A stretch of DNA of 64,000 bases from Escherichia phage vB-Eco-KMB43, in the sequence record OR525698.1; one strand, written 5' to 3'. The number at the start of each line of letters is the position of its first letter. Positions within the stretch are counted from its first letter, which is position 1. The position numbers and the translations under genes are program-made. The notes under the pieces were generated by a model, which worked only from the letters and a program-made list of their open reading frames with translations, ran no database searches and had not been told where the DNA came from. This document shows positions 15,895-21,512 of this stretch, piece after piece.

Positions 15895-16392
15895 TTAAGA
15901 CAGTCGAGTGAGTTTATAAATTGTTTTAAAACATAGAGCTTTGATATCGTCTAAAACGCTCTGTAACGAGCTATCAACATCATTATAAATCTCACTAGCC
16001 ATTTGCGTTAACTCTTGCAAATAGGCAATTTCGCTAATCTCCTTGCGGACGACCAACGTTGGCTGATAACGACCAGTGATCCCAATATTGGTTTCAGTGA
16101 AATCATCAACCAATTCTTGCATTTCAAGATAGAACTCTTCTAGAGCCTTATGTTTTGCATAAGATCCAGGACCAGTTACCCCAAAATGCGCAGAATGCAT
16201 ATAAGTAACACTCATCAGACATTCACCGATAAAGCGGTCAACTTTATTAGCTTTCCCCTCTTCGGACGTCTTTCGAAAATCACTGAATTTCATGTTCTCG
16301 ATTCTCCATATTATGCAACATAACAAACTGTTGTGCGGCATATTCCCCCATAATAAAACACTGCTTAGAATCCATACATTTACTACGAGCAT
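15895..16392 (-). CDS. hypothetical protein (probable CDS 15895..16293)
   Basis: Internal ATG at 16293 (MKFSDF) with GGAGAATCGAGAAC RBS. Confidence 0.5.
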   Translation of the reverse strand: MLVVNVWILSSVLLWGNMPHNSLLCCIIWRIENMKFSDFRKTSEEGKANKVDRFIGECLMSVTYMHSAHFGVTGPGSYAKHKALEEFYLEMQELVDDFTETNIGITGRYQPTLVVRKEISEIAYLQELTQMASEIYNDVDSSLQSVLDDIKALCFKTIYKLTRLS

Positions 16393-16582
16393 ACATCTTC
16401 ATAATATGGGCATGAAATTTCTGGCTGGTTTCAATGGAAGGAGATATTTTGTTTACATATACTATCATTGCGCCGTCGAAATAATCAGTAAAGTCACCAG
16501 TTGGATCATATTGATCAGCACTGACACTTCCGACCGCAGTCAAGCATATTGCCGCTGTTAGAGTTTTACGAATAAATGACAT
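16280..16582 (-). CDS. secreted small protein with N-terminal signal peptide
   Basis: MSFIRKTLTAAICLTAVGSVSA signal-like N-terminus; TATAAATA motif upstream on the minus strand. Confidence 0.5.
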   Translation of the reverse strand: MSFIRKTLTAAICLTAVGSVSADQYDPTGDFTDYFDGAMIVYVNKISPSIETSQKFHAHIMKMYARSKCMDSKQCFIMGEYAAQQFVMLHNMENREHEIQ

Positions 16583-17775: not shown

Positions 17776-17978
17776 TTACATTTAGGGCAATGCGGTTCTT
17801 TAATATAATACCCGTCTGTCTTTGGAACACTAACAGGAGCGGTTTTTATATTGTATTCAGTGAAACAACGAAAACAAGTTACGTTTTCTACAGACTGACG
17901 TTTCACCCAATCACCGGAATATAGATCATTTTTATTTGTCATATTCAACCACCACAATGTTAATGTCTGGAGTAGCAA
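17748..17978 (-). CDS. small zinc-ribbon-like protein
   Basis: CFRCF ... CPKCKC cysteine pairs. Confidence 0.5.
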   Translation of the reverse strand: MLLQTLTLWWLNMTNKNDLYSGDWVKRQSVENVTCFRCFTEYNIKTAPVSVPKTDGYYIKEPHCPKCKCRLYWSHL

Positions 17979-18387
17979 TATTAATGATCTCTTCTACACA
18001 TTCCCACTCAAGGCCACCGATACCGCAACCGATTTTAGGAATATAGAAAGGCTGTATAGCACCTTCAAAAACATCATTGATAGTCTCAAATCCTTTCAGG
18101 ATAGCACCATATTCAGCATTTGGACCCGGTCGGAATTGGGTATAGAGATTCACCCCGCACCAGTTATAACCATTAACTTGATGCGTCCAGACACTAAACC
18201 CACCCAGCTTTTCTACCTTACCGCGAGAAGTTTGCTTGTCAATCTCTAACGCTTGCGGGAACTCTTTCGCGATCTTTGCAGCAATACCAGCGCCCATAGT
18301 ATGAAAACAATTACAACCATGAATTAAATGACCGTTTCCTTGTTTAAACAGGGCGATGAGATCGCCCTTTACAGTATCAATAATCAT
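17932..18387 (-). CDS. macrodomain protein (TARG1/DarG-like ADP-ribose hydrolase fold)
   Basis: GDLIAL...HGCNCFHTMGAGIAAKIAKEF matches the TARG1/OARD1-type macrodomain signature as recalled; 151 aa. Confidence 0.6.
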   Translation of the reverse strand: MIIDTVKGDLIALFKQGNGHLIHGCNCFHTMGAGIAAKIAKEFPQALEIDKQTSRGKVEKLGGFSVWTHQVNGYNWCGVNLYTQFRPGPNAEYGAILKGFETINDVFEGAIQPFYIPKIGCGIGGLEWECVEEIINIATPDINIVVVEYDK

Positions 18388-18402: not shown

Positions 18403-18762
18403 TTAGTCACGGGAAGACAACCCAGCCATAAAACGGCTTAACAGTGTGTCGCGATAAGCAAAGCATAATTGCTTATCAGGGGCAGTATCACAAAGGTTGC
18501 GTTTTGTTTTAGCAAAGCTGGCAATACTCAGATCCCATGCTCGATTTTTTCGTTTTTCGTCTCGACCTTGTTTGTATGCTTCGTCGAGTTCAAGTGCGAT
18601 AAAATCACTACACATGTTATCATCATCACAGAAAGTTTTAATGATCTTTTTGTTGATCTCAAATCCTTTGTATTCGAACTTTGGATAAGGGCGCTCATTA
18701 CTAGCAAGCGCACCAGCCGAGAACATCATAGCAATCATAGCAATTATTGTCAACTTTTTCAT
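18403..18762 (-). CDS. secreted Cys-containing small protein
   Basis: MKKLTIIAMIAMMFSAGALA signal peptide. Confidence 0.5.
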   Translation of the reverse strand: MKKLTIIAMIAMMFSAGALASNERPYPKFEYKGFEINKKIIKTFCDDDNMCSDFIALELDEAYKQGRDEKRKNRAWDLSIASFAKTKRNLCDTAPDKQLCFAYRDTLLSRFMAGLSSRD

Positions 18763-18769
18763 ATATTCC

Positions 18770-19360
18770 TCAATAGCGTTTAGTCTTAAGAATGCCTTTA
18801 CTCTTTAGATGGTTAGCCTTTTTTAGTACGTCATCAGCATAACCTAATCCGGCTTTATAGTTCCATCCAGCATTGTAAGAAGCTAGCGCGAGTCGGATAT
18901 TACCGTTTCGAACATCCAGCCAGTATGCTAACTCATCCATCGCGTAGAATGCAGAAACCTCGCGATTCATGATAAAGTTGATAGTCTGGCGATCACTCAT
19001 TTTAACACCGCGCTTTGCATTTTTCGCTTTCACCGTTTTAAGGTAATTTTGAAATAATCCATAAGCATGATGATTTTTCTTTGGTGCTAAGTTTGCACCC
19101 GCGCTTGATTCTTGCCATGCGATACCCGCCAGGATGTGACCTAAACCCTTTCCGTTATAGCGAATATTCGGATGGTCCTTTTTCAACTTACCGCTTTTCT
19201 CGAATTGCTCGCCGTATTGATAGGCGAAATGTAAATTATCTAGTTGGTGTGCTGTAAAGTTGTCTATCGGCGCTTTTTTGATCGGTGCGCTAGTCGATGC
19301 GTGTGTAGCACCAACGGCTAGTGACAGACTCAATACTATCGCTTTTAGAACTTTTAACAT
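18770..19360 (-). CDS. secreted lytic transglycosylase-like protein (SLT domain)
   Basis: Signal peptide, then AWQESS, GLFQ and YNAG motifs typical of family 1 lytic transglycosylases. Confidence 0.6.
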   Translation of the reverse strand: MLKVLKAIVLSLSLAVGATHASTSAPIKKAPIDNFTAHQLDNLHFAYQYGEQFEKSGKLKKDHPNIRYNGKGLGHILAGIAWQESSAGANLAPKKNHHAYGLFQNYLKTVKAKNAKRGVKMSDRQTINFIMNREVSAFYAMDELAYWLDVRNGNIRLALASYNAGWNYKAGLGYADDVLKKANHLKSKGILKTKRY

Positions 19361-19446
19361 TAATTTCTCCTGTTTGGCTTAACTTTCTGATTCCATAATA
19401 TAGCCCTATCACCAGAAAGTCAAGCATTATTTTTAACCAATTTCCA

Positions 19447-19941
19447 TTATTGGTCTACCTTCAAAACAACCGCCGACATTTTACCCGCCAGTCGTTTTGG
19501 ATTCTCTATAATCATTCGACAGCATAGACCGTGATACGGCTTGCCGTCTTCAATTAGGTCTACTGTCATCCCGATCCACATGTTACCGTCAGTAATTTCT
19601 AATCGATTAGGTCGGTCTTCCATTTTCAGGAAGTCGAAGATCTCCGGCAAACGAGTTTCTATCTTATTGAATAGTTCCATTGTCTTATGTTCATCGATAT
19701 GACGATCGGTTAGACGGTCGATCATATGCGGACTAAAGCGAATAAAAATATACTCACCATAACCATCATTCAAACACTTTTCTTTGATCTGCGCATTGGT
19801 TTTGCGCATTTCGGTTTCGAAGAATCTACGCAGCTTACTACGGCGAACATGTACGTTAATTGTTTCCATTTTATTATCCTTTCTTAAACAAATTGCGAAT
19901 CCAGTATACAAACGGGATTTCTTTAAACTTGAACTTGTCAA
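19447..19941 (-). CDS. hypothetical protein (probable CDS 19447..19869)
   Basis: Internal ATG at 19869 (METINVH) preceded by AGGA RBS. Confidence 0.5.
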   Translation of the reverse strand: MTSSSLKKSRLYTGFAICLRKDNKMETINVHVRRSKLRRFFETEMRKTNAQIKEKCLNDGYGEYIFIRFSPHMIDRLTDRHIDEHKTMELFNKIETRLPEIFDFLKMEDRPNRLEITDGNMWIGMTVDLIEDGKPYHGLCCRMIIENPKRLAGKMSAVVLKVDQ

Positions 19942-20269
19942 TAGTTAATTCTTTAGTAGCAAGATGAATACCATAAGCATCATGTGTAACTATATGCCAT
20001 TTTCTATAGTCCAAATGTGAACAACCGTCTGGATCTAGGTTAATAAGAGTTTCTCTCTCACTAGGATTATTTTTCCACAATTTTGTAATAGGATCGCACA
20101 TAATTCGACCTAGCGTACCATGAATAATCTCACAACGGTAAAGTTTTCCAGCAGTGAGATAGGCGCACCCGTCATAGTCGGTATAAACAAACACTTCTTT
20201 AACACTCATTTTAATACTCCTTTGTTGTTTCGATGGGGGTATATTACTACCCCCGATCATGTGTGTCAA
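19874..20269 (-). CDS. small hypothetical protein, GCSHL family (probable CDS 19874..20209)
   Basis: Track start lies in the promoter; ATG at 20209 with GGAGTATTAAA RBS; DPDGCSHLDYRKWHIV motif. Confidence 0.5.
   Translation of the reverse strand: MTHMIGGSNIPPSKQQRSIKMSVKEVFVYTDYDGCAYLTAGKLYRCEIIHGTLGRIMCDPITKLWKNNPSERETLINLDPDGCSHLDYRKWHIVTHDAYGIHLATKELTIDKFKFKEIPFVYWIRNLFKKG
20241..20269 (-). promoter_or_regulatory. early promoter (TTGACA -17- TAATAT) with GGGGGTA..TACCCCC inverted repeat
   Basis: tgtcaa at 20264-20269; inverted repeat 20235-20254. Confidence 0.6.
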
Positions 20270-20530
20270 CTACTTTTTCAAGATTTTTTTGATTGCATTC
20301 CAAAGACCTTTATTTCCAGGTTGTTTTGGTTCTTCGATCAGTGTCCATGTTCGACCGTCTAAGTGTGCACAATTTTTAAGACAAATAAAAATCTGGTGTC
20401 CCTTATCATCACGGATATAACCACTATTCGCAAATCTTTCATGTGGTGTATATTCATACAGTGTATTAGGTGTAATATACTTGCGGTTACTATAAGGTGT
20501 CATCACATACATCATGGTACTAACTCCCAA
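20270..20530 (-). CDS. small hypothetical protein, GCSHL family paralog
   Basis: CLKNCAHLDGRTWTLIEEP motif shared with neighbours. Confidence 0.5.
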   Translation of the reverse strand: MGVSTMMYVMTPYSNRKYITPNTLYEYTPHERFANSGYIRDDKGHQIFICLKNCAHLDGRTWTLIEEPKQPGNKGLWNAIKKILKK

Positions 20531-20706
20531 TTATCACCGCGAAGATGAGAACATCCACCATCAAGAAGGATCGTAATACGATAACCTATATCATCTTTGA
20601 TGTAACCGATTGTCGGTGGATTTTCGTAGTCTCGTGTCGGGGTAAAATCATACATCTTTCCTGGCGTAATATCTTGTCCTTTATTGCTATTGGTATAAAC
20701 TTTCAT
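20512..20706 (-). CDS. small hypothetical protein, GCSHL family paralog
   Basis: LLDGGCSHLRGDNWELVP motif. Confidence 0.5.
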   Translation of the reverse strand: MKVYTNSNKGQDITPGKMYDFTPTRDYENPPTIGYIKDDIGYRITILLDGGCSHLRGDNWELVP

Positions 20707-21426: not shown

Positions 21427-21470
21427 AATTAAACCCTCAGTTGATTAAGAGATTGCATCATATCATCATA

Positions 21471-21504
21471 AAACGAAAAAGCCAACCCTTTTCGGATTGG
21501 CTTG
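21471..21504 (-). terminator. rho-independent terminator after the grcA-like gene
   Basis: GCCAATCC-gaaaa-GGGTTGGC hairpin followed by a T-run on the minus strand. Confidence 0.65.
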
Positions 21505-21512
21505 ATGAAAAA

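Follow-up and report, generated by a model that had tools for sequence, protein, structure and literature searches.

The 64,000-nucleotide (nt) window analysed here, from Escherichia phage vB-Eco-KMB43 (OR525698.1), carries two adjacent genes, vs.1 and vs, whose products both look exported. In the reading that we favour, with some reserve, Vs.1 would cut the host murein and Vs would act in the same compartment. From its sequence and structural model, Vs.1 is predicted to be a small GH23/family-1 lytic-transglycosylase-type protein whose catalytic glutamate is intact, and both proteins provisionally appear to start with conserved Sec-type signal peptides. Both genes are already known, and the transglycosylase similarity of vs.1 was published in 2006. 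The initial annotation of this region, made from the letters of the DNA alone, missed that its "enzyme" and its "Cys-rich partner" are the named genes vs.1 and vs; its interpretation of the enzyme is right but already published.

The approximately 2 kb around vs.1 and vs share 98.4–99.1% DNA identity with the Krischvirus phages JSE, Phi1 and GEC-3S, and the Vs protein of the window is identical to Vs in an RB49 record. The window phage is a Krischvirus (RB49/JSE-like, T4-type) that is 99% identical to JSE. The gene order of JSE, on a single strand, is regB, vs.1, vs, tk.4, three small open reading frames (ORFs), tk and rI, and the regB–vs.1–vs–tk.4 genes of the window are all located on the minus strand. 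The vs.1 gene (18770–19360, minus strand) encodes a secreted-looking GH23/family-1 lytic-transglycosylase-like precursor of 196 amino acids (predicted mature form about 19.7 kDa, pI about 9.9), and vs (18403–18762, minus strand) encodes a 119-amino-acid precursor of a small four-helix protein, whose family bears the name "valyl-tRNA synthetase modifier" (PF26829, phrog_1256). Both ORFs had been delimited with exactly these coordinates in the initial annotation. PHROG profile searches assigned Vs.1 to phrog_600 (6e-60) and Vs to phrog_1256, "valyl tRNA synthetase modifier" (1.8e-33). The PF26829 domain (ValRS_modifier) is carried by close Vs homologues with 97–98% identity, the label vs.1 is present in the annotations of JSE and Phi1, and some GenBank records already name vs.1 a lytic transglycosylase domain protein. 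The two Krischvirus ORFs are orthologous to the T4 genes vs.1 and vs. They are clearly beyond chance, with vs.1 homologues in 2033 phage records and both T4 products in published proteome/transcriptome classes. T4 Vs.1 (UniProt P13311; phrog_600) shows 52% identity to the window protein over residues 35–192, occupies the same slot between regB and vs–tk.4 and agrees with it in the motifs and the signal-like N-terminus; the window protein is 15 residues longer, mostly after the signal peptide.

The assignment of Vs.1 to the lytic transglycosylases, which the initial annotation had made from a set of ES...GLFQ...YNAG motifs, is borne out by a Pfam match, invariant motifs, an alignment with Slt70 and fold comparison. 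The Pfam SLT domain (PF01464) matches residues 76–167 with 26.1 bits (E = 6.6e-6), a small margin above the gathering cut-off of 21.3. The motif set is present as E84-S85, G101-L-F-Q104 and S161-Y162-N-A-G165. In a family alignment of 20 homologues with 39–90% identity, E84, S86, H97, A99-Y-G101, F103-Q-N105, S161-Y162 and A164-G165 are invariant, and at least 90% of the sequences retain N163. The codon of the predicted catalytic acid Glu84 (GAA, motif QES) is located at 19109–19111 on the minus strand. A comparison with hhalign placed the segment IAWQES...YGLFQ of Vs.1 on IARQES...SGLMQ in the precursor of E. coli Slt70, with E84 aligned to E505, the position of the catalytic Glu478 in mature Slt70. 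Loss of the catalytic glutamate on alignment had been named in the initial annotation as an observation that would speak against the enzyme class; the residue is retained in all 20 homologues.

The AlphaFold2 (AF2) model computed from the alignment (predicted local distance difference test, pLDDT, 84; predicted template-modelling score, pTM, 0.77) shows a detached low-confidence N-terminal helix, then a disordered linker (residues 21–28), and the alpha-helical catalytic fold known from goose-type lysozyme. All of the top 21 Foldseek matches in the PDB are lytic transglycosylases (MltD, Slt, LtgA and Cj0843), goose-type lysozyme or GH23 chitinase, with Foldseek probabilities of 0.99–1.00 for almost every one of the best 18 and at least 0.92 in 19 of the 21. 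Vs.1 would share its modelled catalytic fold, motif set and predicted periplasmic location with family-1 enzymes such as E. coli Slt70, P. aeruginosa MltD and Slt, and N. meningitidis LtgA. In contrast to these bacterial enzymes, it is much smaller, with one domain of about 175 residues in its mature form and no LysM, superhelical or lipoprotein module, its sequence similarity to them is remote, and its gene belongs to virulent phages and is expressed early. The family also has features of its own that are absent from Slt70: H97 and A99-Y100 ahead of G-L-F-Q, as part of an H-H-A-Y stretch specific to Vs.1 proteins, and a conserved N-terminal helix (Q39, L43, A46, G50). Vs.1 has no cysteine. 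A relationship to the SLT domain was described by Nolan et al. in 2006 (PMC1524935), who found it in all six vs.1 orthologues examined, suggested a role in lysis and cited earlier PSI-BLAST matches for T4 Vs.1.

The signal peptides that the initial annotation had noticed on both proteins were evaluated with a home-made heuristic (not SignalP) that scores the charge of the n-region, how long and how hydrophobic the uncharged core is, and the presence of a small-x-small cleavage site. Both proteins pass it, and the pattern is kept in their families. Their N-termini combine a basic n-region and an uncharged hydrophobic core of 12–19 residues with the putative cleavage sites THA↓S and ALA↓S. The predicted signal peptide of Vs.1 comprises residues 1–21 (19298–19360, minus strand; MLKVLKAIVLSLSLAVGATHA, followed by STS) and that of Vs residues 1–20 (18703–18762, minus strand; MKKLTIIAMIAMMFSAGALA, followed by SNE). 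Among the 163 ORFs of the window that start with ATG and encode at least 60 amino acids, only eight pass the heuristic. One of them is the homologue of the RI antiholin (16280–16582), which serves as a positive control; passages of PMC8385771 report that the cleavable signal peptide of T4 RI was shown experimentally. The heuristic is passed by 17 of the 20 Vs.1 relatives, and the three failures include a protein without the N-terminal region (P0008). The Vs.1 homologues of Felixounavirus, Ceceduovirus and RB43 pass, and that of Kuttervirus has a similar N-terminus. The sequence of the Vs.1 signal segment is poorly conserved, its hydrophobic pattern is kept. Sixteen of the 18 Vs relatives pass as well, the failures including P0030, which lacks the N-terminal region, and P0034, which shows a lipoprotein-box-like LSGC in place of the signal-peptidase-I site; at the corresponding site P0038, which passes, has LLAC. 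No further hydrophobic window was detected beyond residue 30 of Vs.1 or Vs.

The second protein is very divergent in sequence. T4 Vs (UniProt P13310; PF26829; phrog_1256) likewise directly follows vs.1 and has a signal-like N-terminus, and BLASTP aligns it with the window protein over the full length (4e-8, 27% identity); however, a tblastn search with the window protein at 1e-3 fails to reach T4. Vs harbors four cysteines, C45, C51, C91 and C100, rather than the six counted in the initial annotation, and all four are in register with those of T4 Vs. Among 18 Vs sequences only C45, C51, G66, C91, C100 and G114 are invariant, and the cysteines are spaced as CX5C and CX8-10C. The family is small, because an HMMER scan of 1.8 billion representative proteins retrieved only 16 relatives. 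The AF2 model (pLDDT 81) contains a four-helix domain at residues 32–116, where the pLDDT is about 90.

Vs was also compared with lysozyme inhibitors. T4 Spackle (Sp), Ivy, MliC/PliC, PliG and LprI are small, exported and often disulfide-bonded proteins that act on periplasmic muralytic enzymes, and the LprI/DUF1311 family has four conserved cysteines. Fold searches with Vs gave no significant match to Spackle, Ivy, MliC/PliC, PliG or LprI, and no relationship to Spackle or the bacterial lysozyme inhibitors was detectable in sequence and fold searches. A lead to LprI/DUF1311 (3gi7, Foldseek E = 6) was discarded, as a profile comparison with E. coli YecT (PF07007) aligned the signal peptides only.

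At the junction of the two genes (18767–18772, minus strand) the vs.1 stop codon TGA (18772–18770) overlaps the ribosome-binding site of vs (GAGGA, 18771–18767), which lies 7 nt upstream of the vs ATG, a layout that suggests translational coupling; in T4 the two ORFs share an 8-nt overlap. The pair is kept in Straboviridae. The overlap of ribosome-binding site and stop codon, the T4 overlap, the Straboviridae gene order, the export-like N-termini of both proteins and the similarly low insertion reads of both T4 genes (see below) are in favour of a link between vs and vs.1. The gene vs.1 is clearly more widely distributed than vs, homologues of which were found in 354 records with the window Vs, a less sensitive query. 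Vs.1-type proteins with predicted secretion are not confined to the T4 family and were also found in Felix-O1-like phages, Kuttervirus (Ackermannviridae) and Ceceduovirus (loci L004 2501–3049, L009/L011 2495–3112 and L005 2489–3016); in Felix-O1-like phages the vs.1-type gene is located between rIIB and pnk.

A predicted, conserved promoter of the sigma-70 (early) type is located directly upstream of vs.1 (19395–19423, minus strand). It consists of TTGACT (19423–19418), a 17-nt spacer and TATTAT (19400–19395), with an A/T-rich stretch upstream, matches 10 out of 12 consensus positions and lies in the correct orientation inside the 86-nt spacer between regB and vs.1. The spacer with its own promoter distinguishes the window from T4, where only 7 nt separate regB and vs.1. 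Bare consensus matches are no rarer than chance (eight sites found, 7.6 expected in shuffles); the site is nevertheless credible because of its position, its orientation, the annotation of the same site as a promoter (-35 and -10) in phage GEC-3S, and its conservation. It is identical in the relative L013 (Vs.1 90% identical) and kept as TTGACT-17-TAATAT in the metagenomic relative L014 (Vs.1 57% identical), where the rest of the spacer diverges.

The initial annotation had described this promoter-like site together with an inverted repeat, and both are real. The repeat (GCTTGACTTTCTG ... CAGAAAGTTAAGC; 19377–19425, minus strand) has 13-nt arms at 19377–19389 and 19413–19425 with 92% complementarity and 23 nt between them; the -35 hexamer lies in the 5' arm, the -10 hexamer in the loop and the expected start site under the 3' arm. 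On this layout a hairpin could form in RNA reading through from regB, and would be impossible in RNA begun at the vs.1 promoter. The RNA fold of the spacer has -20 kcal/mol (z = -2.64), and two of 200 shuffles fold as well. The repeat is present in L013 and absent in L014, so that its interpretation as a conserved regulatory hairpin was rejected and it is regarded as lineage-specific; of the two elements, only the promoter has proven conserved. Downstream of the promoter, the Shine-Dalgarno sequence of vs.1 (AGGAG, 19367–19371, minus strand, 6 nt upstream of the ATG) contains GGAG (19367–19370), which is the motif cut by the RegB endoribonuclease according to an annotation note of GEC-3S and to passages of PMC1702504. 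With regB immediately upstream, the vs.1 mRNA may be a RegB target via the GGAG in its predicted ribosome-binding site. A second sigma-70-like site in the first codons of vs (18725–18753, minus strand; TTGACA-17-TATGAT with an upstream TG, 11 of 12 positions) loses strength in L013, is missing from L014 and was dismissed as a promoter; the codons for K-L-T...M-M probably account for it.

Data on expression and fitness are available for T4. A published proteome/transcriptome study classed vs and vs.1 as "early RNA, middle protein". By insertion saturation, the T4 HIDEN-SEQ preprint classifies both genes as "non-essential"; the mean insertion reads in LB medium are 26.6 for vs and 22.6 for vs.1, compared with 289.6 for tk.4, 178.6 for regB and 652 for vs.3. 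The tabulated values of the pair are thus about ten-fold below those of the neighbors. From LB to M9 glucose, no gene is depleted more strongly than vs (log2 fold change -2.19, adjusted p 0), which the authors read as a nutrient-limitation effect, and vs.1 is mildly depleted (log2 fold change -0.87, p 0.0055, adjusted 0.155). The function of vs.1/vs is dispensable in rich medium, yet seems to contribute to fitness.

In the scenario that we favour, host RNA polymerase would transcribe vs.1 and vs together early in infection. Both products would cross the inner membrane via Sec and be cleaved by signal peptidase I. Periplasmic Vs.1 would then cut the MurNAc–GlcNAc bonds of the host murein non-hydrolytically and remodel the sacculus of the infected cell locally. 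Given the roles established for T4 gp5 and gpe, it would be neither the entry lysozyme nor the endolysin, and its function would be an accessory one. Candidate purposes of this cutting are the provision of space in the sacculus for phage complexes that span the envelope, easier later lysis, or the release of recyclable muropeptides. Vs would form two disulfides in the same compartment, possibly acting together with Vs.1.

Several observations weigh against this scenario. The signal-peptide call depends, provisionally, on a home-made heuristic. The hhalign comparison of Vs.1 with Slt70 alone is weak (E = 0.13), as are the Foldseek E-values (0.015–2, with query-normalised template-modelling scores of 0.35–0.5), and PDB sequence searches with Vs.1 alone and with the family profile found no transglycosylase, so that the link to the solved enzymes rests on Pfam and the fold comparison. 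Our literature search found no measured enzymatic activity, localization or signal-peptide cleavage for any family member. Two to three ORFs lie between vs.1 and vs in RB43 and Slopekvirus, and no Vs homologue was detected within 2.5 kb on either side of vs.1 in Kuttervirus, Felixounavirus and Ceceduovirus. An obligatory pairing of the two genes is not supported, given these three groups and the separated genes in RB43 and Slopekvirus. Furthermore, the low insertion reads of vs.1 could reflect a polar effect on vs. Finally, the textbook role of Vs, which is cytoplasmic, conflicts with its predicted periplasmic location.

This conflict leads to the alternative that Vs is a cytoplasmic binder of the host valyl-tRNA synthetase (ValRS) and that its adjacency to vs.1 is merely inherited T4 gene order, an explanation we regard as rather unlikely. 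The hydrophobic N-terminus of Vs would then be no export signal, or export would be partial, and the cysteines would serve another role. Older literature reportedly describes an in vivo stabilisation of temperature-sensitive ValRS after T4 infection, and the purified ValRS-modifying factor is said to have been about 10 kDa, a size with which the computed mass of T4 Vs lacking its signal peptide, 11.0 kDa, would agree. The family name and annotation favour the binder, as does the classical biochemistry cited in PMC8076793, in whose relevant passages T4 Vs is referred to as a factor binding the cytoplasmic enzyme. The specific need for vs in minimal medium, as interpreted by the HIDEN-SEQ authors, and the three phage groups with vs.1 and no nearby vs fit it as well. 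ValRS binding has been studied in T4 only, and no such study was found for the Krischvirus lineage. The n-h-c signal pattern in 16 of 18 homologues, with a lipobox-like variant in one, argues for export instead, and so do the four invariant cysteines with their CX5C and CX8-10C spacing. The basic N-terminal end predicts a periplasm-facing C-terminal part, and T4 Vs lacks any methionine between M1 and M100 from which translation of a signal-less form might start. N-terminally His-tagged full-length T4 Vs made in the cytoplasm was insoluble (PMC8076793). Our search, which excluded the T4 genome review and Müller & Marchin, also found no account of how the locus vs was assigned to the ORF.

Two further explanations retain the envelope as the site of action. 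Typical lysozyme inhibitors are small disulfide-bonded periplasmic proteins, and Vs might be a periplasmic inhibitor or immunity-type regulator of Vs.1, or, as T4 Spackle is, of the lysozyme of superinfecting phages. The tight gene coupling including the T4 overlap and the exported appearance of both products are compatible with this idea, and a loss of vs that is worse than that of vs.1 in M9 is expected if the unrestrained enzyme is toxic. Unless insertions into vs.1 are polar, its low insertion reads in LB are unexpected for a mere hazard, no Vs homologue was detected within 2.5 kb of the vs.1 homologues in Kuttervirus, Felixounavirus and Ceceduovirus, and Vs resembles no known lysozyme or transglycosylase inhibitor in sequence or fold. 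The proposal of the initial annotation that the partner is a regulator or superinfection-exclusion factor is weakened by this lack of similarity and by the occurrence of vs.1 without nearby vs, and we consider an inhibitor decidedly improbable. Still less credit is given to the explanation that Vs.1 is not an active lytic transglycosylase and instead represents a murein binder, a hydrolytic lysozyme/chitinase-type GH23 protein or a membrane-tethered lysis enzyme of the signal-arrest-release (SAR) type. The presence of goose-type lysozyme and GH23 chitinase in the Foldseek list and the family features absent from Slt70 point in this direction. However, the catalytic glutamate and all three family-1 motifs are kept, and there is no conserved acidic residue between E84 and G101, where the second catalytic Asp of goose lysozyme presumably lies. 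By sequence judgement, the hydrophobic core of about 12 residues (AIVLSLSLAVGA), followed by the small-x-small site THA↓S, is too short for a SAR membrane span, which would be an uncleaved segment of about 20 residues.

Some features of the neighborhood deserve mention. Directly downstream of vs, the macro-domain gene tk.4 (17932–18387, minus strand; Pfam Macro 1.3e-6, phrog_335) corresponds to the macro-domain ORF of the T4 region; a recent preprint reports that a T4 macrodomain protein named AdfM, which may be Tk.4, neutralises the DarT2 toxin. For regB (19447–19941, minus strand) the mechanical ORF list begins at a TTG (164 amino acids), whereas the JSE annotation matches an ATG at 19869 (140 amino acids); the Pfam RegB match starts at residue 29 of the long form. 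Upstream of regB, three tandem small ORFs (19874–20209, 20270–20515 and 20512–20706, minus strand) are mutual paralogues with about 30% identity that share a C-x-H-L ... W motif and an N-terminal V-x-T ... T ... Y pattern. Between nrdC.11 and vs.6, where JSE has a homing endonuclease gene (L001 7442–7972), the window shows an 86-nt gap (21427–21512), and on this comparison the window phage lacks that gene.

As it stands the pair matters little, consisting of annotated genes of a sequenced phage lineage. The remaining interest lies in the localization paradox of Vs and in a widely conserved, secreted-looking phage transglycosylase without an assigned role. The predicted enzyme Vs.1 is expressed early and conserved in three groups of large virulent myoviruses, Straboviridae, Ackermannviridae and Felixounavirus, and a contribution to fitness is suggested by the T4 transposon data. 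Few T4 genes share with vs a clear conditional phenotype, in its case in minimal medium, and the sequence of Vs predicts a compartment other than that of its accepted target. The specific proposal that Vs is an exported, disulfide-bonded periplasmic protein working with Vs.1 on the cell envelope is, in our estimate, improbable. If it were true, the fifty-year-old ValRS-modifier label would reflect a mis-assignment of the locus to this ORF, an association formed only after cell breakage, or a second function, and the pronounced requirement for vs in minimal medium would be an envelope and not a translation phenotype. Settling the location of Vs would lead either to the correction of a textbook annotation or to the discovery of an unusual route taken by a phage protein.

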